64,000 bases of DNA from Longimicrobiales bacterium (GTDB taxonomy: Bacteria; Gemmatimonadota; Gemmatimonadetes; Longimicrobiales; Gaopeijiaceae), in contig CBDDCX010000008.1 in assembly GCA_965226375.1 (NCBI GenBank), forward strand, positions 1,408,001 through 1,472,000, given 5' to 3'. Shown one piece after another: positions 44,844 to 56,532 of this stretch. Below the pieces are notes generated by a model, which was not told the DNA's origin, ran no database searches, and worked only from the letters and a program-made list of their open reading frames with translations. The translations under genes were made by a program, and so were the position numbers. Within the stretch, counting starts at the first letter, position 1. Every line of letters begins with the position of its first letter.

Positions 44844-47800
44844 CTAGGCCGCCGAACCACCCACCTGCAGAGCGTCCTGGAACTGCACCCCGACAATCGT
44901 GCTCACTCCGGGCTCTTCCATAGTGACGCCGTAGATCCAATCAGCGGCTTCGATGGACCTCGGATTGTGTGTGATGATCACGAACTGAGTCTGCTTCTTG
45001 AATTCCTGGAGCAGTCGAATGAAGCGACCGATGTTGTTCTCGTCGAGCGGGGCATCCACCTCGTCGAGAACGCAGAACGGACTCGGCTTGACCAGGTAGA
45101 TCCCGAAGAGCAATGACAGTGCCGTCAGAGCCCGCTCTCCACCCGACAACAGATCGATTCTCTGGGTTTTCTTTCCATGGGGAGAGGCGTGCACTTCGAT
45201 CGGTGATTCCAGCGGATCCTCTGGATCTTCCAGCCAAATGTCGGCCTCGCCTCCCTCGAACAGTCGCTGGAAGGTGGACTGGAAGTTTTCACGGATCTTC
45301 TCGAACGTGCCCTCGAAGAGGTCGATGGCGGTCTCATTGATCTGGCGGATGGCCGACTTGAGGTCGTTCCTTGCGGCCATGAGGTCTTCACGCTGCTCAC
45401 TGAGGAACTCGAGCCTGGCACTTTCCTCGGCATGCTCTTCGACGGCGAGCATGTTGACCAGTCCGATGCGATCCAGCTTGATCACGATGTCCTCGAGCTC
45501 CGCCTTCAGGGCTTCGGGCGTACCCTCCACCGGCTCGGCTTCTTCTAGGAGGCGCTCCAGTGGACGACCCCACTCCCCCTCGAGGCGCTCCTGAATGAGT
45601 CCGATGCGACCGGAGACCTCCTGTCTCTCCAACTCGAGCTGATGACGTCGGTCTACGGCTTCACGCTCGGCGCTGCGTGCCACGCGCGCCGCCTTATCCG
45701 CTTCAGCCAGGGCCTCGGCCACGTCGGACAACACCTTGGTTCGCTCCGCGTACACCGTGTCGGCTTCATCACGTTCACCGAACAGCCGCTCCGTCGCGAC
45801 GCGGCCATTTTCCTGGAGCGTTTGGACGGTGTCCACCTCTTCCCTCAGGTCTTTTTCCTCGACATCGAGCTCACCTAGTCGATCCTCCCCGGTGGACATC
45901 TCGCGGGTGAGATCTTTCAGGCGCTCGGCCACTCTTGCGACGTCCGCCTCCAGGCGAGCCAGGGTCACCGACAGCCGGGTCTCCTCTGCCCTAGCCTCTT
46001 CCCACTCGTCCTGGACGCGGACGAGGACCTCACGCGCTTGCTCGCGCTCGGCACGGATCGCACCCTCCTGTCCCAGAAAGCCCTCGCGATCCTCTCCGGC
46101 CGTCTGTGCTCGTTCCAGCGCCCTGGTCCGGGCAGCCTTGGCTCCCTCCAACTGCCTCGCGAGCTCGTCTCGATGGGTGTCAACTCGGGCTCGGCGGTCT
46201 ACCTGAGCCGCCATCTCGGCGCTGGTCCGCCTCAACTCGTCTTCGGCTTCCAGGAATGAGACGCGTGCGGCTACGAGAGCGGCCTCGGCCGCTTCCGCCG
46301 CGGCATCCGCGTCTTCGACCTCCCTCCTTGAAACGGTCGCCTTGCCCGCGGCCTGACCCAATGTCTTACGCAATGACTCAACGCGAGCCCTCCGCTCGAG
46401 CATGCCGGAGGTCCCCGACGGTCTGCCGATCTTCACAAAGCCGCGGGGATCGCGAACCATGCCCGTAATCGACAGCAGTGAGCGGTCTGGATCTGGACTA
46501 CTCGCGACAGCATCATCGGCCTCGACCAGATCCGCCTCACCGAGCAGTGCTTCCACCCAGGGAGCTCCCTGCCCTTTGGCTTTGACGGACTTCAGCAGTG
46601 ACCCACCCGCGTGATCGGGCACACGATCGAGGGGAAGCAGCACCAGCCCGCCATCCTCGGTCCACTCTTCGGCAAACCAGCGAACGATACGATCGACGCA
46701 AGCACCATCTCGCACCACGAGAGCCTGTGCGAGCGGGCCCAGGTAGGTCTCCACGGCCGCGGCGACCTCACTGGCAGCTTCCATGAAGTCGAGTAGGGAT
46801 CCCACCACGTCGGCGTCTTCAAGAGCGAGTACGGCCTGGATGGCCGGGTCGACACCCTCGTGCCTGAGGCCGAGAGCTTCCAAGGCCGAGACCTCGACCT
46901 CCATGCCCTGAACGATTCGAGCGGCATCGAGGTCCCTCAGCCTCGCCTCGTCGAGTGCCTTACGGCGGCCCTCGAGATCCTCCCGAGCGGTGTCGAGGTG
47001 TTTCCGGGCATCCTCCACCGCCACCTGGAGACCATCGAGGCGGGTCGTGAAGAGATCACCCTGCGACTCAAGGTCGGTCAGAACGGTGGAGGCGTCACTC
47101 AGTTCCACCGTTACCCGCTCGATGCGGCGCTCGAGCTCGGCGGCCTGGCCCCGGGCCGCTTCGGCACCGCCCTCGAGCTGTGCGCCCTTTCGGACCAAAT
47201 CGCGCTCCCGGTGCTCCGTCTCTTCAACCCGATCGCGCGCTTCCTTCAGGCGCGCCTTCACGGCCGCCGACACTTCTGCCTGGCTAGTGGCATCCGCCCG
47301 GATCGCCTCCAGCTTTCCTTCCTGCCCATCGTGATTCGCCTGAAGGTCGGTCGCTTCGACCCTGACGTCGCCCAAACGCTTGGACCAGGCCTCACGATCA
47401 TCGTCGATCTGACTCAGCCGCTTTTCGGCGTACCCTCTACGCTCTTCTGCCACGGCCAGGTCGCGCTCCCACTCGACGAGTTGGGTCTTCACCCGGTCGA
47501 GCACCTCCGCAGCTTCGGTCCTCGCCCGTTCCGCCGTCACCTCATCGAGCCGTAGCTTCTCATAGGTGGCCTCGGCTGTCCGAAGCTCGGCCACCATGCC
47601 CTGACCCGTCTTACGGTCTCCCTCCAAGACGGCATCCAGCTCCTTCAGGCGCGCCGAAAGATCCGCCAGGTCGTTGCGAACTACAGCGACCTCGACCGAC
47701 AACCGTCGTTCCCGAAGAGACTTGTATCGCTCGGCCTTGCCCTTCTGCCTAGCCAGCGACCGTACCTTGGTCTCGACCTCGCCGATAACGTCTTCCAGGC

Positions 47801-48368
47801 GAGTGAGATCGTTGTCGGCGTGCTCCAGCCGACGAAGCGCGGCCTTACGACGATCCTTGTACTTGCTGATTCCGGAGGCCTCTTCGAAGAGTTGCCGTCT
47901 CTCCTCCGCGCGATCGGAAAGAATCGCATCGATCATCCGGGTCTCAATCACCGAATAGGCGTTCGCGCCAAGTCCGGTATCGCGGCAAAGATCGACTACA
48001 TCACGCAGACGACAGGTCGCCCGGTTTAGCGAGTAATCACTCCCCCCATCCCGATATATCGTGCGGCCGATCTCGACCTCATCATACGCGACCGGAAGCA
48101 CTCCGTCCTCGTTGCTCACGACCATGGTAACCGCGCCCCGGTTCACGGGGCGGCGATTCAGTGAACCCTGGAAGATCGCCTCCTCCATCTTGCCACCACG
48201 GACGGCGGAGGGACGTTGCTCGCCCAATACCCAGCGAACGGCGTCGCTGATATTCGATTTTCCACAACCGTTGGGCCCGACGATCGCGGTGATGCCCTCG
48301 TGGAAGTCGATGACGGTGGAGTCTGCGAACGACTTGAACCCGTGGAGGCGAAGAGATCGGAGTTTCAT
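44844..48368 (-). CDS. smc: Chromosome segregation protein SMC
   Basis: GFKSF, GPNGCGKSN, coiled coils and hinge, LSGGE, LDEVDAPLD. Confidence 0.97.
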   Translation of the reverse strand: MKLRSLRLHGFKSFADSTVIDFHEGITAIVGPNGCGKSNISDAVRWVLGEQRPSAVRGGKMEEAIFQGSLNRRPVNRGAVTMVVSNEDGVLPVAYDEVEIGRTIYRDGGSDYSLNRATCRLRDVVDLCRDTGLGANAYSVIETRMIDAILSDRAEERRQLFEEASGISKYKDRRKAALRRLEHADNDLTRLEDVIGEVETKVRSLARQKGKAERYKSLRERRLSVEVAVVRNDLADLSARLKELDAVLEGDRKTGQGMVAELRTAEATYEKLRLDEVTAERARTEAAEVLDRVKTQLVEWERDLAVAEERRGYAEKRLSQIDDDREAWSKRLGDVRVEATDLQANHDGQEGKLEAIRADATSQAEVSAAVKARLKEARDRVEETEHRERDLVRKGAQLEGGAEAARGQAAELERRIERVTVELSDASTVLTDLESQGDLFTTRLDGLQVAVEDARKHLDTAREDLEGRRKALDEARLRDLDAARIVQGMEVEVSALEALGLRHEGVDPAIQAVLALEDADVVGSLLDFMEAASEVAAAVETYLGPLAQALVVRDGACVDRIVRWFAEEWTEDGGLVLLPLDRVPDHAGGSLLKSVKAKGQGAPWVEALLGEADLVEADDAVASSPDPDRSLLSITGMVRDPRGFVKIGRPSGTSGMLERRARVESLRKTLGQAAGKATVSRREVEDADAAAEAAEAALVAARVSFLEAEDELRRTSAEMAAQVDRRARVDTHRDELARQLEGAKAARTRALERAQTAGEDREGFLGQEGAIRAEREQAREVLVRVQDEWEEARAEETRLSVTLARLEADVARVAERLKDLTREMSTGEDRLGELDVEEKDLREEVDTVQTLQENGRVATERLFGERDEADTVYAERTKVLSDVAEALAEADKAARVARSAEREAVDRRHQLELERQEVSGRIGLIQERLEGEWGRPLERLLEEAEPVEGTPEALKAELEDIVIKLDRIGLVNMLAVEEHAEESARLEFLSEQREDLMAARNDLKSAIRQINETAIDLFEGTFEKIRENFQSTFQRLFEGGEADIWLEDPEDPLESPIEVHASPHGKKTQRIDLLSGGERALTALSLLFGIYLVKPSPFCVLDEVDAPLDENNIGRFIRLLQEFKKQTQFVIITHNPRSIEAADWIYGVTMEEPGVSTIVGVQFQDALQVGGSAA

Positions 48369-50941
48369 TGGGGCAGTCGGCCTCTACGTTCGGTCAGACG
48401 TACGCCACCCAGGTCGTTCGAGCGAAGGAGTCGTCCCATCGCGGCGGCCTGGAACTCGTCCACGAAAGCGCCACCATACACGCGCATTGCCGTGGTCTCG
48501 TCAGGATAACTGACTTCGAGGATGTGAGTCGGGATGGAGAGAGCGGCTAGCGACTCTACTCTGCCGGCCGCATCCGCATCCTCGGCATACTCCCCGAAGA
48601 AGAACGAGTATCTCGCTTCCTGAACCGTCCACGTGGTGGGGTCGAGTCGATCGAGAACCTCGGCCAGAGGCTCCTTGAGATCGTCCGCCTCCACCGCGCT
48701 GAAGGCCGGGCCGGCGAGCAACGCGTATTGGACGCCTCCGTCTACCTCTGTAACGGTCACAAAGAACAAGAACTCGGGAAGTCTCGCCCTGAGGGCCTCC
48801 ACGGTGCTCAAAGCCGTTTCCATATTTCGCCAAGCCTCGACCGCGAGCACGTGCGTTATCACGGGCGTCACCGGCGTCGGCCCCGGTAGCTCCACGGGGG
48901 CGGGTACGGCGGAGCGCACCCTGTCCGGTGGCGTGATCCCGGGGATGTTGACGAGGCCGAAATACGCGACGCCGAGGCCTCCGCCACCGACAATCAGTGC
49001 GGTCGTCCCGGCCACCATCAGTTGCCGGAGCCTTGCCCCTCTCTTTCTTCGCCGCTCCAACTCCTCCAGCCCCGACATTCTCGCCGGTGGACCCTCGTCC
49101 GCGACAACCTCGATGTCTGGCACCGTATCCTCGGCGGGAGGCGTGTCGGCAGCGACCTCCATGACCTCCGCGGCCGCATCCACGGCAATGGATCCGTCCG
49201 CAGCATCCACGATCGGCACGTCATCACTGAGTTCAGGGGGGCCGGCCTCAAGGTCGGCTGCGTCGTCACCACCGAGAGGCACGTCTCCCGCGGCCCCGGC
49301 AAGGTCTTCCTCAGCGGCCTGCTCCTCCTCTTCGGCCACGGCACTGGCCTCTACCTCGAGGCCTTCGTCTCCGAAGCCGAAGTCGTCGGCACCCTCCATC
49401 TCCTCTTCCGACTCCCCACCCAGCGCGACTGCATCGGCGGCCAAGTCCATGCCCTGGTCGTCCGGCGCGTCTTCAAGATCGAATCCGGAGCCTGTCTCGA
49501 ATCCGGCCATATCCAGACGGGCCGCCTCGGCTGCAGCCGCCACAGCTTCCTCATCCATTTCGACGTTGGATCGGGTCACCCCGTCCATCATGTCCGCCTC
49601 TTTGTCGGCCGCCTCATCCGCGCTCACTGGGGCCTCTGGACCCGCCGCCGCCGGTTCGTCGGGTTCCGGGGGGGACACCTCGAGCGACTCGACCTCCGAG
49701 GGCTCCATCTCCAAGGCCGCCACATCCAGGTCCAGGCCCGCTTCCTCCTCGGACTCCTCCTCCGACGGAGCGTCCTCTTCAAGTGAGGCCGCCGACTCGT
49801 CGGGTTGAGTCACTACCGGCTCGACCTCGTCAGGGACCTCGGGCGGGGGCGTGGGATCTTCCGTCTCGGCTGCGCTGGAAGCGTCGTATTGTGATCCTGC
49901 CATGCCGTCGAAGTTGAAGGCGCCGGAGTCATCCGTCTGGTCTGCAGCATTTCCCGTGGACTCGGGAAGCTCTTCCATCGAGAAGAGTTCCCCATCACCG
50001 GCGACCTCCTGTGTGACCCCGGCCGGCGTTTCATCAACACTGACAGGTGGCTCGAGCTCTAACTCCGGCTCCGACCCCAACTCCGGCCCGGACTCCAACT
50101 CCGGCTCCGACTCAGACTCAGACGTCGGGTCCAACTCCGGCTCGGGCGTTGAATCTGCCTCGAACTCGGCTTCTTGATCGTCATCCAGGTCAGAGACCAT
50201 CTCTACCTCCGGTTCCGGTTCCTCTTGGAGCACCTCTGCAACCTCCAGCTCCGCATCGAACCCATGCTCGGATTCAGGATCTAGCTCAGTCGTCGAAGCG
50301 AGTTCAGACTCGGGTTCGGACGTCCTGTCTACCTCGACGTCCATAACCGCTTCGGGGCCAATCACGGCAAGGACTCGTTCCGAAGCCGCACCCAGGATCG
50401 CTCCCCCCGCGTCTCCGCCCGCCTCCGAAACGAGGATGATTCCTGCGGCCTTGTCGAGCAGGGCCCCGGCTCCGGTGGTGGAAGCCGACAGATGCAAGAC
50501 CAGCACCGCCCCGGCCTCCTGGAAGCCGCCAATGACCGTATCCCACTTGGGGTGCGCCAATACCTCTTCAGCGTCAGCCACCGGGGTTCCTGCAGGCGCA
50601 AGGAGAAAACCACCGTCGACGGGCCGGGCTACCCGCTTCACCGAAGCCCCATAAAGCATGACGTCGGACAGGCCTTCATCGCCTGCGCCGTCAACCAGTT
50701 CATGGAGAACCGGATCCTCGAAAGACGCATCTGCCAGAAGGACGCTCCGGCCCCTGGCAGCCCAGCCCCGAGCGAGGAGCAGGCTCGCACTCGCCCCCCA
50801 GTGTCGTTCGATTTCCGGTGTCACCCAGACGACCACACAAGCCGGAGTGGAGTCGGCAGAATCAAGCGCGCCGGCAATCGGCTCCGGGAGGTCCCCACCG
50901 GTCGGATCAATGGACTGCCAGGCTGGAATATCCGGACTCAT
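48365..50941 (-). CDS. Bitopic protein: degenerate ParA/MinD-like domain, long acidic linker, TM helix, SPOR-like domains
   Basis: LARGWAARGRSVLLAD...GLSD...PAG without a GKT/S motif; roughly 430-aa D/E-rich region; TM LMVAG...YFGL; YALLAGP and RVYGGAF; ATGA overlap with smc. Confidence 0.8.
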   Translation of the reverse strand: MSPDIPAWQSIDPTGGDLPEPIAGALDSADSTPACVVVWVTPEIERHWGASASLLLARGWAARGRSVLLADASFEDPVLHELVDGAGDEGLSDVMLYGASVKRVARPVDGGFLLAPAGTPVADAEEVLAHPKWDTVIGGFQEAGAVLVLHLSASTTGAGALLDKAAGIILVSEAGGDAGGAILGAASERVLAVIGPEAVMDVEVDRTSEPESELASTTELDPESEHGFDAELEVAEVLQEEPEPEVEMVSDLDDDQEAEFEADSTPEPELDPTSESESEPELESGPELGSEPELELEPPVSVDETPAGVTQEVAGDGELFSMEELPESTGNAADQTDDSGAFNFDGMAGSQYDASSAAETEDPTPPPEVPDEVEPVVTQPDESAASLEEDAPSEEESEEEAGLDLDVAALEMEPSEVESLEVSPPEPDEPAAAGPEAPVSADEAADKEADMMDGVTRSNVEMDEEAVAAAAEAARLDMAGFETGSGFDLEDAPDDQGMDLAADAVALGGESEEEMEGADDFGFGDEGLEVEASAVAEEEEQAAEEDLAGAAGDVPLGGDDAADLEAGPPELSDDVPIVDAADGSIAVDAAAEVMEVAADTPPAEDTVPDIEVVADEGPPARMSGLEELERRRKRGARLRQLMVAGTTALIVGGGGLGVAYFGLVNIPGITPPDRVRSAVPAPVELPGPTPVTPVITHVLAVEAWRNMETALSTVEALRARLPEFLFFVTVTEVDGGVQYALLAGPAFSAVEADDLKEPLAEVLDRLDPTTWTVQEARYSFFFGEYAEDADAAGRVESLAALSIPTHILEVSYPDETTAMRVYGGAFVDEFQAAAMGRLLRSNDLGGVRLTERRGRLPQ
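50061..50114. repeat. Three imperfect 18-bp tandem repeats within the coding sequence
   Basis: AACTCCGGCTCCGACCCC / AACTCCGGCCCGGACTCC / AACTCCGGCTCCGACTCA, encoding ESEPEL-like units. Confidence 0.75.
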
Positions 50942-51088
50942 CCGCGCACCCTTCGCATGGTGAAAAAACCGCGCCGCGACGGGCACGATGCACCAGCAGA
51001 ACGGAGTCGTCGCACCCCCCGTTTTGATGGCGGCAAAGGTAACCCACCCTCCAAGAGAGGTCCACAGGAGGCCCGGACACGCCGGCCT

Positions 51089-52600
51089 TCAGCGCACATA
51101 CCGGCCTATCCTCGGCCCGAGTATCGGTACGCCTCCAAACGCAGTGTCCAACTCCGTCCTCATGACGTCCGCCTCCGCGGGGCTCTGATAGGCCCCTGCG
51201 TACACCCGAAAGCCCGGGGCCGTCGAACCGGCAACCTCGAACACGTAGGCCCCTATACCCGCGTTACCGATTTCCGCTACCCGACCAGTCGCCGCCTCGA
51301 TCGACTCGAACCCTCCAAAATCGAACGCGAGCGGGGTCGGCCGGACGATCCAACGGGCGCCGTCATCGCCCGTCAGGGTTTCCGCCAGAGATTCACGGAG
51401 GCGCTCTGCCCCGAGGGAGTCCACCGATGGGCCTGCCAGCACCCGATGATACACGCGATCCGCCACCCTCACGGGAGCGACAATGAACAACAGGTCCGGA
51501 CGTCGCTGGGCCAGCCTCTGGGCATGTCGCCCAGCGGCCTCGCGCGTCTGATAGGCAGCCAGTGCCAGTGAATACGCCTGTTGCGGCTCCGGCGGCGAGG
51601 GCTCGGCAGACACCGATGTCTGGAAATCTTCAGTAAGCGCTACCGGAACCGTCTGGTCCGCGGGAACGAGCATCCTCTGCAACAGAAACAGAGCCCCGAG
51701 CCCTACCAGCGTCCCCACCAGAGCCGGCCGCCAAGGGATCCGCCGCCGATCGGGCTCGGTCCCGGTCTCAAGCTTGGCCTCGGTCTCAAGGGCAACAGCC
51801 TCAGTGTCAGTTTCTGGCTCAGCCTCTGTCGTAGGAACGGAGTCAGTCCCTGGCTCAGTTTCAGTTTGCGGCTCTGCCTCAGTCGTAGGCTCCACCCCAG
51901 TCTCAGGCACACGTGCTGATCCAGCCTCGACCACCTCCGTGCTAGCCTCGGCCTCCACCTCACCCGCCATCTCGATCGACCCCTCCGTCGGCGGCGGTGG
52001 CCCTCGATCCTCCAAAAGACCCCACACCTCGTCGAGAGCGAAAGACTCGGCCACCCACTCCGCTTCGGTCGGATCGCCCGCAAAAAGGAGCGTTGCGGTG
52101 CTCCGAGCTATCAGAGCATCCACGCCCGGGAGGTCCGCGGGCACGTAGAAGAGGACCCTGGCCTGAGCACTCCCCACCTCCTCCACGAAGGCCGACCACG
52201 CATCGCTCAAAGTGATTTCAGTGGGATCCTCGACCGGTGTACCGACGGACACGAACTGAAATCCTGGTGCTCCGGCTTGTTGCGCCACCGATGGCATGGA
52301 CGCCTCGCGAAGGACGAGGTCAACCACGCCTACCGCGTTCGGCAATCCCAATGTCTGGTGAAGCACCGGCTCGGTGAGGGACAAATCGAAGAGGATGACA
52401 CGGTGACCCTGATCGGACCAAGCCCGTGCGACCGCGATCGCAGCGGCCGGGCTCCAGGACGATCGGGCGACGTCCGGCGTGACAATAAGGGTGACGACGC
52501 CTCCCCCGGCGCCTGAGACGAGTGCGCCGGGTGCCGCGATCTCCGGTAGATGACCGGAGTCCGGGTCAAACGGGTATAGGCGCGAGTGGCCCCGATCCAA
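51089..52600 (-). CDS. Paralog with the same architecture (degenerate P-loop domain, acidic linker, TM, SPOR)
   Basis: VARAWSDQGHRVILFD...PVLH...GT; E/T/P-rich repeats; TM; YHRVLAGP and FRVYAGAY. The start is uncertain. Confidence 0.78.
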   Translation of the reverse strand: MDRGHSRLYPFDPDSGHLPEIAAPGALVSGAGGGVVTLIVTPDVARSSWSPAAAIAVARAWSDQGHRVILFDLSLTEPVLHQTLGLPNAVGVVDLVLREASMPSVAQQAGAPGFQFVSVGTPVEDPTEITLSDAWSAFVEEVGSAQARVLFYVPADLPGVDALIARSTATLLFAGDPTEAEWVAESFALDEVWGLLEDRGPPPPTEGSIEMAGEVEAEASTEVVEAGSARVPETGVEPTTEAEPQTETEPGTDSVPTTEAEPETDTEAVALETEAKLETGTEPDRRRIPWRPALVGTLVGLGALFLLQRMLVPADQTVPVALTEDFQTSVSAEPSPPEPQQAYSLALAAYQTREAAGRHAQRLAQRRPDLLFIVAPVRVADRVYHRVLAGPSVDSLGAERLRESLAETLTGDDGARWIVRPTPLAFDFGGFESIEAATGRVAEIGNAGIGAYVFEVAGSTAPGFRVYAGAYQSPAEADVMRTELDTAFGGVPILGPRIGRYVR

Positions 52601-52745: not shown

Positions 52746-53114
52746 TCACTCGAACTCGCGCCTGGGCGCGTCGCCCCACAGAACCTCGAGTTGATAGAAC
52801 TCCCGGGCTCCCGGATGAAAGACGTGGACGACGAAGTCGATGTAGTCCACCAGGACCCAGCGCCCGCTCGCCAACCCCTCGACATGTGCGGGGCGGATGC
52901 CCAGTTCCTTCAACTCCCTGATGACGTGGTCACCGATGGCTTTGACCTGGACGTCGGACTGTCCGGTCGCCAGCAAGAAGTAGTCGGTGGCACTCGAGAT
53001 GCCCCTCAGGTCGAGGACAACCACGTCGGCTGCCTTGCGTTCGAGCGCGCACTCGGCTGCACGCTCTACGTCATGACCGATCTCGGACACGTCGGTGCTC
53101 GACTGATTTCCCAT
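52746..53114 (-). CDS. rsfS: Ribosome silencing factor RsfS
   Basis: KAADVVVLDL, DYFLLATG, WVLVDY...VHVF...REFYQLEVLW. Confidence 0.95.
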   Translation of the reverse strand: MGNQSSTDVSEIGHDVERAAECALERKAADVVVLDLRGISSATDYFLLATGQSDVQVKAIGDHVIRELKELGIRPAHVEGLASGRWVLVDYIDFVVHVFHPGAREFYQLEVLWGDAPRREFE

Positions 53115-53137: not shown

Positions 53138-53596
53138 CTACTCCTCCCCAGCGCGCTCCACACGTACATCGACTTGGACTTCGACCTGGCTATGGAAACG
53201 CACGGAAACCTTGAATTCTCCGAGGAGCTTCAGCGGCTCTTCGAGAATGACCGTGCGGCGGTCCACCTCGAAGTCCAATTCTCCCTGGTTCAGCTGGTCG
53301 GCGATGTCGGCGTTCGTGACCGAGCCGAACAACTTGCCGTCATCCCCCGCCCTGACATGAAACACGAGTGATTTTCCGTCGAGCTGGGCGGCGCGACGAC
53401 GTGCCTCGAGGTAGTCGTGCCTGGCCTTCTCCTCAGACCGCGCGTGCTCCTCCTCCAGCCTCTTCAAGTTGGCATCACTCGCCTGGTACGCGAGTCCTTG
53501 GGGGATCAGGTAGTTGCGCGCATAACCGGGCTTTACGTCGATGATGTCACCCTGACCTCCAAGCGCCTCTACCGTCTTCCTCAAAATGAGCTTCAT
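53138..53596 (-). CDS. rplI: 50S ribosomal protein L9
   Basis: VKPGYARNYLIP, GKLFGSVT. Confidence 0.97.
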   Translation of the reverse strand: MKLILRKTVEALGGQGDIIDVKPGYARNYLIPQGLAYQASDANLKRLEEEHARSEEKARHDYLEARRRAAQLDGKSLVFHVRAGDDGKLFGSVTNADIADQLNQGELDFEVDRRTVILEEPLKLLGEFKVSVRFHSQVEVQVDVRVERAGEE

Positions 53597-53609: not shown

Positions 53610-54554
53610 TTACGTGTCAGTCGTACCGCCGGACAACACGTCGGCCTTGGCTCGTAGGTCGAGCCAAGTATCGCCGACGCCGATGACCAGCGCCCCCATC
53701 GTCAAAACGGGCGCAAGGAGCAACATCCCGAGCGCCATCACCAAGAAACCGAACAGCGAAATACCGCCGTTGAAAAACAGAACCACGGCAACGCCCCGGA
53801 CCGCGTATAGCCCCCCCATGAACACGACGGCGTTGGTCCCCACCCGTGTCCACGCGTCACCTAATCCGAGCACTATCAGCACCAGTCCCACCAGCAATAG
53901 CCACACGAAGTGGTCGTTGAACCGGAAGTCCTTGAGCGGTCCAAGTCCCTGATCACTCCCCGCGGCGAGTCGCACATATCCCCACCAGGCGACACCGAGT
54001 CCCGCCAGCGACGACAGGCCCAGAAGCGCCGGGAATAGCCTTCCCTGAAGGGCCGCGGTCTCGAACGCGGTGTTGACCATCTCCGTCGGGATCTCCACGT
54101 CTGGCTTCCAGGCAGCCACCAAGCTCATGGCCAGGCTGACACTCTTCATGACACCCTCGGAAACGAGCCAATCCACCATGGCCCAGGAGCCCGGCTGGAC
54201 GGCCAGGAGCACCGCCACGAGCCCAAAGGCCCCACCGACGGCTCCGAGAGCCCTCGGAAAAAAGCGGCTGTCGGGCGACCGCATGGTCAGGAACACGAAC
54301 CCACCCGCCAGGATGATCGTCCATCCTCGCTCCAGGTACCAGAGACCTCCACGGGCCGTGGCCCCCAGCGTTACCATCACGGCCAATACGGCAGCCACCA
54401 CGGTCGGGAACCGGCGGGCACCGAGTACGGCGGCGAGCACCAGGAAGGGCACCGCCACCAGTACGCCGGCGCTGACGACCGACAGCCCCATGGTGACGAG
54501 CAGAAGCGCGGCAGCGCGCAGCCACGTGCGCTCGAGCCGCGTCGGGGAATCCAA
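53610..54554 (-). CDS. DUF2232/YybS-like multi-pass membrane protein
   Basis: Many TM segments, C-terminal GVGDTWLDLR; typical position between rpsR and rplI. Confidence 0.8.
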   Translation of the reverse strand: MDSPTRLERTWLRAAALLLVTMGLSVVSAGVLVAVPFLVLAAVLGARRFPTVVAAVLAVMVTLGATARGGLWYLERGWTIILAGGFVFLTMRSPDSRFFPRALGAVGGAFGLVAVLLAVQPGSWAMVDWLVSEGVMKSVSLAMSLVAAWKPDVEIPTEMVNTAFETAALQGRLFPALLGLSSLAGLGVAWWGYVRLAAGSDQGLGPLKDFRFNDHFVWLLLVGLVLIVLGLGDAWTRVGTNAVVFMGGLYAVRGVAVVLFFNGGISLFGFLVMALGMLLLAPVLTMGALVIGVGDTWLDLRAKADVLSGGTTDT

Positions 54555-54575
54555 GAGATCGTGCTCCGCGGAGAC

Positions 54576-55229
54576 CTAGACCTCGTGGTCCCGTAGGTAT
54601 GGGATCAACGCCAGATACCGAGCCCGCTTTATGGCCCGCCCGAGCTGCCTCTGAAAACGAGCGGTGACCTTGGTCGTTCGCTTCGGCAAGATCTTACCCT
54701 GCTCCGTCATGCACTGAGAAAGGGTCGAGACGTCCTTGTAATTGAGAAGCTCGATGACCGGCCCTTCCATCCGACGACGCCGGCCGCGGCCCCCGGAAAA
54801 CTCTGGGGGTCTCTGCCGCCTGACGGCCCCTTCCTCATCCTCGGGCGCTTCCTCCTCAGGAGGCGGACCGTCATCCTCGTCCTCATCATCCTCGCTGATG
54901 CGGACCGGCCGCTCACCAAGGATGGATCTCCCGGTCGTAGGCTCCCCGTCGTTCAAGACCACGAGATGCCGCATGAGCTCAGGATCAAGCTTCAGAATTC
55001 GATCGAACTCGGGGAGGCCTTCGGAACCGGCGCGAACTTGCGCCACCACGTAATAGCCCGCCTTCTGCTTCCGCACGGAGTAGGCCATCTGACGGACGCC
55101 CCAATGATCGACGGCCACGACTTCTCCGTCACTGCCGGTCACGAGGAGATGGAACTTCTCGAGCTTCTTGTTTACCGCATCTTCGTCGAGCGTAGCATCG
55201 AAAATGTAGACGATCTCGTACAGCCGCAT
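54576..55229 (-). CDS. rpsF-rpsR: Fused 30S ribosomal proteins S6-S18 (217 aa)
   Basis: S6 (MRLYEIVYIF...WGVRQMAY...GYY...MRHLVV), acidic/basic linker, then S18 (YKDVSTL...GKILPKRTT...QRQLGRAIKRARYLALIPY) in one frame with no stop. Confidence 0.92.
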   Translation of the reverse strand: MRLYEIVYIFDATLDEDAVNKKLEKFHLLVTGSDGEVVAVDHWGVRQMAYSVRKQKAGYYVVAQVRAGSEGLPEFDRILKLDPELMRHLVVLNDGEPTTGRSILGERPVRISEDDEDEDDGPPPEEEAPEDEEGAVRRQRPPEFSGGRGRRRRMEGPVIELLNYKDVSTLSQCMTEQGKILPKRTTKVTARFQRQLGRAIKRARYLALIPYLRDHEV

Positions 55230-55235
55230 GGTATG

Positions 55236-55290
55236 TCTCCCACGGTCCGCATGTGCAACGGGCCCCGCCACAGGGGCGGAGCGGGATGAG
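55236..55290 (-). promoter_or_regulatory. Candidate S6:S18 ribosomal-protein leader
   Basis: 5' UCCC can pair with the SD-like GGGA; GACCG immediately precedes it; internal GCCCC/GGGGC hairpin; TATATT -10-like box at 55302-55297. Confidence 0.55.
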
Positions 55291-55335
55291 CCAAGTAATA
55301 TAGGCCATGTGGGGGGGTTTTGTACCCCTGGGCCA

Positions 55336-56532
55336 CTAGGACATTTCCTGCTGAAGAGCAAGGACGAGCTCGGGATACCGGGCAAAAGCCCAGCGGGCCT
55401 CCTCCACATCGAGACGCTCCCGATTCGTGTGTGCAAAGCGCTCCTCACCCGGAGCGAATCCCACCGTGGGGATTCCGAAAACACCTCGGCTCCAACCACC
55501 GTCCGTGGCAAACGTCCAGGGACGTACCGCGGCCGGGCCCTCTCCCGCGCGCTGTCCGACCGCAGCAGCTGCAGCCAGGACCAGCGGGTCGAGCGGATCC
55601 ATGAGGAAGCCAGGCGTAAAGAGGCTCCGATCGTGTGCAATTCCCGTGTAGGCAGCCTGTCGCTCCTGCGCCATCGAGACCGACACGCTGAAGCCGTCCG
55701 GGAGCTCGCCCAGTCCACGCGTCACGGCGTCTCTTACACGTGACGTCATGGCCTCTTCGTCCGTCCCGGGCAGGACCCGCCAGTCCAGGACAACCGTGAC
55801 CCGGTCGGGGATGACGTTGCGGCTTTCCGGCAGGACGTCCACACCGGTCGCTACCAGGCTCGAGGTACCGAGAATCGGATCCTCAGGCTGATGCGTGGCC
55901 AACTCCTGCACGGCCCCGAGCACTTGCGGGACCAAGTCCAGAGCGTTGTGGGCACGGTCCGGAGCCGAAGCGTGGCCGGCGAGGCCCCGCAGCACCACCT
56001 CGACCTCACCGCGGCCTCGATGCCCGATGCAAATGTCGCCGTGTGTCGATTCGCCGATCACCACGACGCCGGGCTGGACGCCCCCAGACTCGAGCAGGTG
56101 CTTCATGCCCAGACCACCGCGCTCCTCGAAGACGGTGTGCGCCACAATCACGTCTCCCGCGGCACGGCCGGCCAGGGCGGCGGCGGCGTACGTCTGCAGG
56201 GCCAGGGGCCCTTTGATATCCATGGAGCCACGCCCATGAAGAAACCCCTCGGCGACGTCCCCACCGAAGGGTGGGTACTCCCACTCCGCATGGTCGCCTT
56301 CGGCCACCACATCGGTGTGGCAGTTGAGCAGTACGGCCGGAGCGGCTCCGCTTCCCCGAACACAAGAGATGACGTTGCCCACCTCGTCGCGTCGCACGTC
56401 CTGCAGGCCCAGGGCTTCCATCTCGCTCAGAATCCGCTCAGCTACGTCGCCTTCCTGACCAGAAGGCGAGGGGATGCGGATGAGGTCCTGGGCAAATGCC
56501 AGGGCGTTCTCGAACGTTGGATCTTTCGCCAT
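55336..56532 (-). CDS. M20-family metallo-hydrolase (ArgE/YgeY-like)
   Basis: NCHTDVV, HGRGSMDIKG, EE, GES, FATDG, AHT. Confidence 0.9.
   Translation of the reverse strand: MAKDPTFENALAFAQDLIRIPSPSGQEGDVAERILSEMEALGLQDVRRDEVGNVISCVRGSGAAPAVLLNCHTDVVAEGDHAEWEYPPFGGDVAEGFLHGRGSMDIKGPLALQTYAAAALAGRAAGDVIVAHTVFEERGGLGMKHLLESGGVQPGVVVIGESTHGDICIGHRGRGEVEVVLRGLAGHASAPDRAHNALDLVPQVLGAVQELATHQPEDPILGTSSLVATGVDVLPESRNVIPDRVTVVLDWRVLPGTDEEAMTSRVRDAVTRGLGELPDGFSVSVSMAQERQAAYTGIAHDRSLFTPGFLMDPLDPLVLAAAAAVGQRAGEGPAAVRPWTFATDGGWSRGVFGIPTVGFAPGEERFAHTNRERLDVEEARWAFARYPELVLALQQEMS

Follow-up and report, generated by a model that had tools for sequence, protein, structure and literature searches.

S6 and S18 are a textbook pair of ribosomal proteins that are normally made as separate chains. 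Can one polypeptide take the place of both? This question is raised by a locus in a 64,000-nucleotide stretch of DNA from a Longimicrobiales bacterium (the window), for which the original prediction had reported an uninterrupted 217-aa frame holding a complete S6 and the S18 core, and had read it as a natural single-chain S6:S18.

One open frame carries the only S6 and S18 of the genome

The fusion ORF runs on the minus strand from an ATG at 55229-55227 to a TAG at 54578-54576, encoding 217 aa without internal stops, and the plus-strand frame at 54576..55229 contains a stop. Both domains scored well above their cut-offs: Pfam Ribosomal_S6 (PF01250) covered aa 4-91 (E 1.2e-23, 83.5 against 27 bits) and Ribosomal_S18 (PF01084) covered aa 162-209 (E 1.2e-19, 70.6 against 21 bits), and the NCBIfam models passed their curated thresholds at 77.8 against 42.9 for TIGR00166 (bS6) and 71.2 against 38.75 for TIGR00165 (bS18). 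The canonical rpsF-rpsR layout, with a stop after S6 and a separate start for S18, is absent from this ORF. A profile search of the whole genome (90% complete, 8 contigs) found S6 once and S18 once, each inside the fusion ORF, and no separate rpsF or rpsR copy besides it. Because this is the only copy of both proteins, its product probably carries the usual bS6:bS18 function, namely 30S incorporation and 16S binding.

The region 54400-55400 was spanned in one piece, with no indels, by contigs of all four runs searched (four studies); these spanning sequences are assembled contigs, and run X1 may be the source of this DNA. Within the ORF the runs differed by five substitutions, three missense and two synonymous, none of which created a stop. 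A stop or frameshift in the linker was looked for and did not appear in the contigs of any of the four runs; the open frame in the contigs of four studies refutes an assembly error, and the S6-S18 fusion is real and not a chance product. Two conserved positions deviate in this genome, Cys173 (usually Phe in close homologues) and Leu28 (usually Pro), and their codons at 54710-54712 and 55146-55148 on the minus strand showed no alternative letter in the four runs.

The features of the locus are collected in Table 1. The ssb genes are located elsewhere in the genome. The earlier remark that no ssb or priB separates S6 from S18 was correct, but the absence is not special, as 54 of 54 unfused Gemmatimonadota loci leave no room for a gene there. 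A promoter scan gave no sigma-70 sites, and terminators were no more frequent than chance. Further along, two tandem ORFs that look similar by eye (48365-50986 and 51089-52600, minus strand) lie upstream of smc (44844-48368). Each has an ATPase-like piece at its N-terminus and a SPOR-like region at its C-terminus, and in between a long low-complexity stretch of acidic residues and a hydrophobic segment.

Table 1 Features of the fusion locus and its surroundings in the window
Feature	Coordinates	Strand	Evidence
rpsF-rpsR fusion ORF, single-chain bS6-bS18, 217 aa	54576..55229	-	Pfam, NCBIfam, only copy, intact in 4 runs
bS6 domain, aa 1-95	54945..55229	-	Pfam aa 4-91; pLDDT about 90-95; structural match to S6 chain 8cwo_F
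Conserved S6 C-terminal stretch, aa 96-108; G95 and S102 invariant	54906..54944	-	Family alignment; homologous stretch in unfused S6
Acidic variable linker, aa 109-136, D/E 15/28	54822..54905	-	Alignment; pLDDT <50
PPx(F/Y) junction motif, aa 141-144	54798..54809	-	Alignment of 59 fused loci
Remodelled S18 N-terminal arm, aa 145-163, G/R-rich	54741..54797	-	Alignment of 59 fused loci
bS18 core, aa 164-217; T189 and invariant F192 in place of the ancestral CxxH	54579..54740	-	Pfam, alignment
Leader resembling the S6:S18 operator	55238..55286	-	CCC:GGG stem over SD, covarying hairpin, family-specific short hairpin, CCG bulge
DUF2232 membrane protein gene, downstream, probably in the same operon	53610..54554	-	Pfam
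rplI (bL9), SD-like GGAG upstream	53138..53596	-	Pfam
rsfS, ribosome silencing factor gene	52746..53114	-	Pfam

The fusion is shared by one family of Longimicrobiales

The search for two-domain proteins was productive: all 120 homologue clusters among the matches listed (of 1656) carried both Pfam domains at 100% query coverage, and two named fused loci were found, one in a Longimicrobiales MAG and one in a Gemmatimonadetes MAG. We then refer to the window's family as f1, to its two sister Longimicrobiales families as f2 and f3, and to other unfused families as f4, f5 and f7. The order survey comprised 201 genomes of three families, 77 of them from f1 including this genome. In f1, 58 genomes had a stop-free full-length match, one had a match that was truncated at the end of a contig but had an open junction, 17 had two-piece matches and one had neither match; all 17 two-piece matches, once translated, were a single frame with a longer linker. 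The fusion is present in 76 of 77 genomes, 58 by translation and 18 by profile row alone. In f2 and f3, 120 of 124 genomes matched, none with a stop-free full-length match, and all 34 translated loci had separate genes.

Across the phylum, no stop-free full-length match was found in 213 genomes outside f1, where two-piece matches could hide a long-linker fusion. All 20 translated loci from five other families had separate genes, which together with the sister families makes 54 of 54. A second fusion in f7 was considered and rejected, since the open frames there owe their length to extended acidic S6 tails and S18 is encoded apart (separate genes in 10/10 loci). These tails can be very long (loci L100-L107 and L109, S6 of 177-254 aa in total) and parallel the linkers of f1 genus g3; long acidic tails also occur on L31 in some genomes. 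The tallies for the order, the phylum, bS21 and rimI include a few outgroup genomes, and no conclusion depends on them. In a quick tree of the two cores, the f1 clade had an SH-aLRT of 99 and was nested within unfused Longimicrobiales at 86. The original prediction had named separate genes in all close relatives as grounds for abandoning it; the family itself is fused and its sister families keep the genes apart. By elimination only, f1 is probably GTDB UBA6960 (Gaopeijiales); Table S5 of PMC11651109 lists UBA6960 and RSA9 and marks the UBA6960 rows as novel taxon.

Anatomy of the junction

To describe the junction we used 59 fused loci (57 f1 genomes and the two named records) and 54 unfused loci (34 from sister families, 20 others). 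Fused proteins ranged from 205 to 345 aa, with the variation confined to the acidic stretch, whose length differed by up to about 140 aa and always stayed in frame. The linker had been described as acidic and then basic, and the sequence agrees. S6 of unfused relatives ends in an acidic D/E tail that makes up the first part of the linker, which bears out the proposal that an acidic S6 tail was internalised; judged by alignment, the linker is the ancestral free acidic S6 tail.

In 51 of the 54 unfused loci (43 by script, 8 by reading), the rpsF stop lies within -4..+4 nt of the rpsR ATG, and the GAG-rich codons of the S6 tail read as a Shine-Dalgarno (SD) sequence for S18. With stop and start abutting and coupled in this way and the SD within the tail codons, fusion needed very little: a single origin in the family ancestor would have involved loss of the stop and start between the two genes. 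The gain from the fixed 1:1 stoichiometry that had been proposed is probably small because the unfused genes are already translationally coupled. The fusion is probably near-neutral and, with the start signal of S18 lost, not easily undone.

The acidic stretch ends in a PPx(F/Y) motif (P 55/59, P 55/59, F or Y 56/59), absent in two loci and displaced in a third, followed by (S/T)G(G/A)RGRRRRx(E/D)GP. The F of the motif lies at -20 from the S18 YKD, and the start Met of unfused S18 lies at -19/-20 in 33 of 34 Longimicrobiales. The residues after the motif resemble the N-termini of unfused f3 S18.

Could S6 and S18 really be two proteins here, made by internal re-initiation? An in-frame Met stands just ahead of the S18 core in this genome, and in 30 close homologues Met154 looked invariant. 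As an internal start it was rejected, since position 154 across the 59 loci is H in 23, M in 16, V in 8, I in 6 and another residue in 6. Moreover, codons -35 to -6 ahead of YKD include neither ATG nor GTG nor TTG in 31 of 59 loci, and a start codon with an SD-like word occurs in four of 59 and in none at Met154, in agreement with the original prediction that no SD precedes the internal Met. A start there would also remove the conserved arm. In the family alignment, an internal S18 start is not a conserved feature. Given the same open frame in four studies and the fusion throughout f1, the two-protein explanation, whether by assembly error or by re-initiation, is extremely improbable.

A conserved motif that closes a linker otherwise free to vary, ends where the ancestral S18 began and is followed by residues like those of f3 S18 would also suit a polyprotein that is translated whole and then cut after PPx(F/Y) by a specific protease, giving S18 an ancestral-like N-terminus. 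Prp is the protease that processes the bL27 precursor. Prp (PF04327) was found in 0 of 5 genomes, with the control positive in 3 of 14; the loci in which the motif is missing or displaced, and the fusions of other lineages that lack it, also speak against cleavage. A protease other than Prp that releases S18 at PPx(F/Y), or a tether kept until a 30S assembly checkpoint, is an alternative that we consider very unlikely, and the protein would stay uncleaved in the cell.

Loss of the S18 zinc site

The absence of an N-terminal CxxC in S18, noticed at this locus, extends to all 59 fused loci, which lack the CX2C..CX2H motif; it is present in 52 of 54 unfused loci, including 34 of 34 from sister families (the 20 non-sister loci were scored by eye). 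The N-terminal Cys positions (-12, -9) are now Arg and Glu/Asp (R152 and E155 here), and Thr and an invariant Phe occupy the place of the later CxxH (T189 and F192 here). In solved bacterial ribosomes the CX2C..CX2H motif of bS18 binds Zn, and in the human mitoribosome bS6m donates the fourth ligand, placing the S18 metal site at the S6 interface (PMC11791143). Fusion and zinc loss fall on one branch in f1 and therefore count as one event. Zinc loss is possible without fusion, as two of four S18 in unfused f5 have no zinc motif.

An alternative is that the S18 half came from a different lineage as a zinc-free S18, displaced the native gene and was fused on arrival, as part of zinc sparing. This explanation is compatible with a tethered heterodimer as the mechanism and differs on origin only. 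The long stem branch of f1 S18 (0.54) is in its favour, as is the finding that grouping with gammaproteobacterial S18 was not rejected (p-AU 0.58, in an S18-only tree of 54 columns that was unresolved); likewise, the best PDB matches are gammaproteobacterial, with no Gemmatimonadota chain among the matches listed. Against it, f1 S18 is 53-59% identical to S18 of unfused Gemmatimonadota and 45-48% to other fused S18, and both the native gene position and the spacing from the old start are kept. General zinc sparing was also not supported, since the four Cys are retained in each of S14, L31, L33 and L32, both here and in 10 of 14 f1 genomes. A foreign S18 is unlikely, and descent from the native gene is preferred.

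Separately, four genomes (G004, G013, G046 and G196) have only zinc-free S14, L31 and L33; the three genes lie within about 3 kb in G004, and two are adjacent in G013 and G046. This arrangement suggests that a zinc-free cassette may have replaced the native S14/L31/L33 genes in some f1 members.

RimI, bS21 and initiation signals

RimI acetylates the N-terminus of S18, and its loss is expected if S18 has no free N-terminus. Above a cut-off of E 1e-20, rimI was found in 21 of 40 f1 genomes, compared with 79 of 80 in f2 and f3 and 16 of 16 in unfused f7. It is therefore missing from 19 of 40 f1 genomes and from one of 96 unfused relatives, counts that come from related genomes which are not independent, and it is kept in this genome. 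None of the 19 rimI-negative genomes had a match above the cut-off at a loose threshold, and nine of them are single-contig. The absence is spread over seven f1 genera, including 9/9 genomes of g2. The loss fits a buried N-terminus and is a further point against cleavage; persistence of rimI in 21 genomes is what a released S18 would favour. RimI also acetylates EF-Tu (PMC9079301); this and the retention of rimI here count against taking the losses as a sign of a tethered S18. RimK exceeded its cut-off in one of five genomes, a fused one.

We also considered an adaptive role in translation initiation, in which the tether, together with the aromatic/basic arm, would alter the 30S platform near the anti-SD in the way of bS6, bS18 and bS21 in Bacteroidota. 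The Flavobacterium bS6 C-terminal extension, together with bS18, sequesters the anti-SD (PMC7797042), and the arm in f1 is highly conserved. On the other side, the 16S gene here has a canonical anti-SD, and SD words at -16..-5 precede 36% of 324 bounded starts compared with 9% further upstream. An SD stood before five ribosomal protein genes at 74 of 94 f1 starts and 48 of 71 sister-family starts, with equal mean pairing energy, in sets whose gene mix differs. Because SD words are enriched and equal in strength to those of the sister families, occlusion of the Bacteroidota type is unsupported, and we regard an initiation role as very unlikely. The related idea that the linker replaces bS21 was rejected, as bS21 is present in 40 of 40 f1 genomes. 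Each of these genomes had one bS21 match, and many f2 and f3 genomes had two.

The leader resembles the S6:S18 operator

The S6:S18 heterodimer acts both as an assembly unit and as a repressor (PMC4647458, PMC10931766), and its operator combines a CCC:GGG stem that overlaps the SD with a hairpin and a CCG bulge (PMC10931766, PMC4647458). A single pattern for such a leader matched 57 of 59 fused and 38 of 54 unfused loci. In 26 fused leaders chosen for their short loops, the main hairpin had two-sided changes in six of eight pairs, and none of 500 shuffles reached the covariation score. By pattern, an additional hairpin of 4 bp (CCGU/RCGG) precedes the CCG bulge in 48 of 59 fused leaders and in none of the 38 matched unfused leaders; in the 26-leader alignment it showed U-A/U-G variation only, and a two-sided variant occurs in L014. 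The minimum-energy fold of the single leader of this genome differs from the operator shape and is 1.9 kcal/mol lower. An Rfam search gave snoRNA-level noise only at the locus and nothing in eight related loci, six of them unfused; as these loci were also without a match, the search had no positive control. Autoregulation through an S6:S18 leader is likely to be retained, as judged from the conserved pattern and the covariation.

A tethered heterodimer as the preferred reading

An AlphaFold prediction made from 54 sequences gave confident S6 and S18 domains with a linker at pLDDT <50 (pTM 0.67); the conserved arm was undocked in this model, and aa 143-152 had pLDDT <50. The best structural match of the S6 fold was 8cwo_F (Z 16.2, rmsd 1.5 over 96 residues, TM to target 0.91). 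Several solved S6 chains have ends that superpose on model residues up to 166-169, which places the start of S18 beside the end of S6 in the model; linkers of about 6-12 aa in some other fusions fit this arrangement. Among the best 60 of 134 matched PDB sequences, none had both domains in one chain.

Taken together, we put at about 80% the probability that the fusion product stays uncleaved and works normally as a tethered S6:S18 heterodimer, its tether and rebuilt arm standing in for the zinc knuckle. The single polypeptide would fold in cis into an ordinary bS6:bS18 heterodimer, bind the uS15-remodelled 16S central domain and repress its own mRNA leader. The formerly free acidic S6 tail would serve as a disordered tether that loops out from the platform. 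The N-terminal arm of S18 would have been rebuilt zinc-free (Cys to Arg and Glu/Asp, His to Phe), and the stabilising role of the knuckle may have passed to the PPx(F/Y)-G/R arm and the covalent tether.

Recurrence in other lineages

Fusions of S6 and S18 are also present in databases outside the family. Among the best 150 representatives at 50% identity, 53 had both domains, of which six were f1-type and about ten looked like chimeras or frameshifts; of 20 other two-domain representatives examined, 16 were single-member clusters, so some of these entries are doubtful and lend the two-protein explanation some support. Several groups are nevertheless well founded. Both domains occurred in 45 of 120 matches listed to a gammaproteobacterial-type profile and in 25 of 120 to a mixed profile. 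A Legionellales-labelled fusion was found on 19 contigs, and three clusters in the ESM Atlas, mostly Pseudomonadota and with 55-88 members, have both domains. A single origin of 21 fused rows was rejected (p-AU 2.7e-8; LG+G4 quick tree with 24 unfused rows, 10 of them with S6 only). By this test the fusion arose independently in other phyla.

Three single-member fusions without a zinc motif (P0127, P0136 and P0138) grouped with unfused f4 (SH-aLRT 90) and are possible further origins inside Gemmatimonadota. In the P0295 cluster, which is marine gammaproteobacterial with a Thiotrichaceae label, a 117-aa S6 and a 196-aa S6-S18 each occur on many contigs; this mixture of lengths is a further point for the two-protein explanation, and the fusion in this cluster may still be polymorphic or may reflect recurrent read-through.

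The original prediction was not aware of a published description, and we found none of a natural S6-S18 fusion in open papers; a mention in a table or a closed paper is possible. The main text of PMC3353972 contains none of the terms 'fusion', 'fused' or 'S18', and a review treats S6 and S18 as a heterodimer (PMC10931766). Automatic database names are already two-domain ('ribosomal protein S6/ribosomal protein S18', 'Multifunctional fusion protein'). Elsewhere, annotation pipelines hide the fusion by naming the protein S6 only or S18 only.

The fusion defines a family, its junction is mapped, it is linked to loss of the zinc ligands and it recurs, and it is probably without effect on the mechanism of the ribosome. 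It offers a clean family marker, and comparison with the unfused, zinc-binding sister families allows codon-level mapping of the junction. It also provides a natural test of whether 30S assembly and autoregulation require S6 and S18 as separate chains, of the role of the S18 zinc knuckle and of the reason for retaining RimI. Should the family be UBA6960, ribosome mass spectrometry and cryo-EM could be done on a cultured member, Gaopeijia maritima. The repeated origins suggest that S6-S18 may be a fusion hot spot of the bacterial ribosome.

Comparison with known systems

Canonical bS6:bS18 of E. coli, B. subtilis and T. thermophilus shares with this locus two complete domains, the rpsF-rpsR order followed by rplI, an S6 fold that superposes at rmsd 1.5-2.5 A, and a conserved leader with a CCG bulge and an SD stem. 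Here, in contrast, there is one chain, and the free S6 C-terminus and free S18 N-terminus are lost.

Other database fusions (Legionellales-labelled, Proteobacteria-labelled and from unnamed groups) have the same domain order, and 52 of 53 two-domain representatives have no CxxC where S18 begins; the exception is probably a frameshift product. They differ in having a separate origin and different linkers, some of about 6-12 aa, with no PPx(F/Y).

Compared with zinc-free (C-) bS18, such as M. tuberculosis RpsR2 and proteobacterial S18, the fused S18 likewise lacks CX2C..CX2H, but it is the sole copy and not a second paralogue, the other zinc ribosomal proteins keep their Cys, and it is joined to S6. 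The anti-SD-sequestering bS6/bS18/bS21 platform of Bacteroidota is comparable as a lineage-specific remodelling of the S6 C-terminus and S18; that platform goes with a genome-wide lack of SD sequences, whereas SD signals are retained here. Finally, human mitoribosomal bS18m-bS6m is also a case of the two proteins stapled together near the S18 metal site (PMC11791143). The human staple is a shared [2Fe-2S] cluster, while the fused protein is held together by a peptide tether and has lost the metal site.
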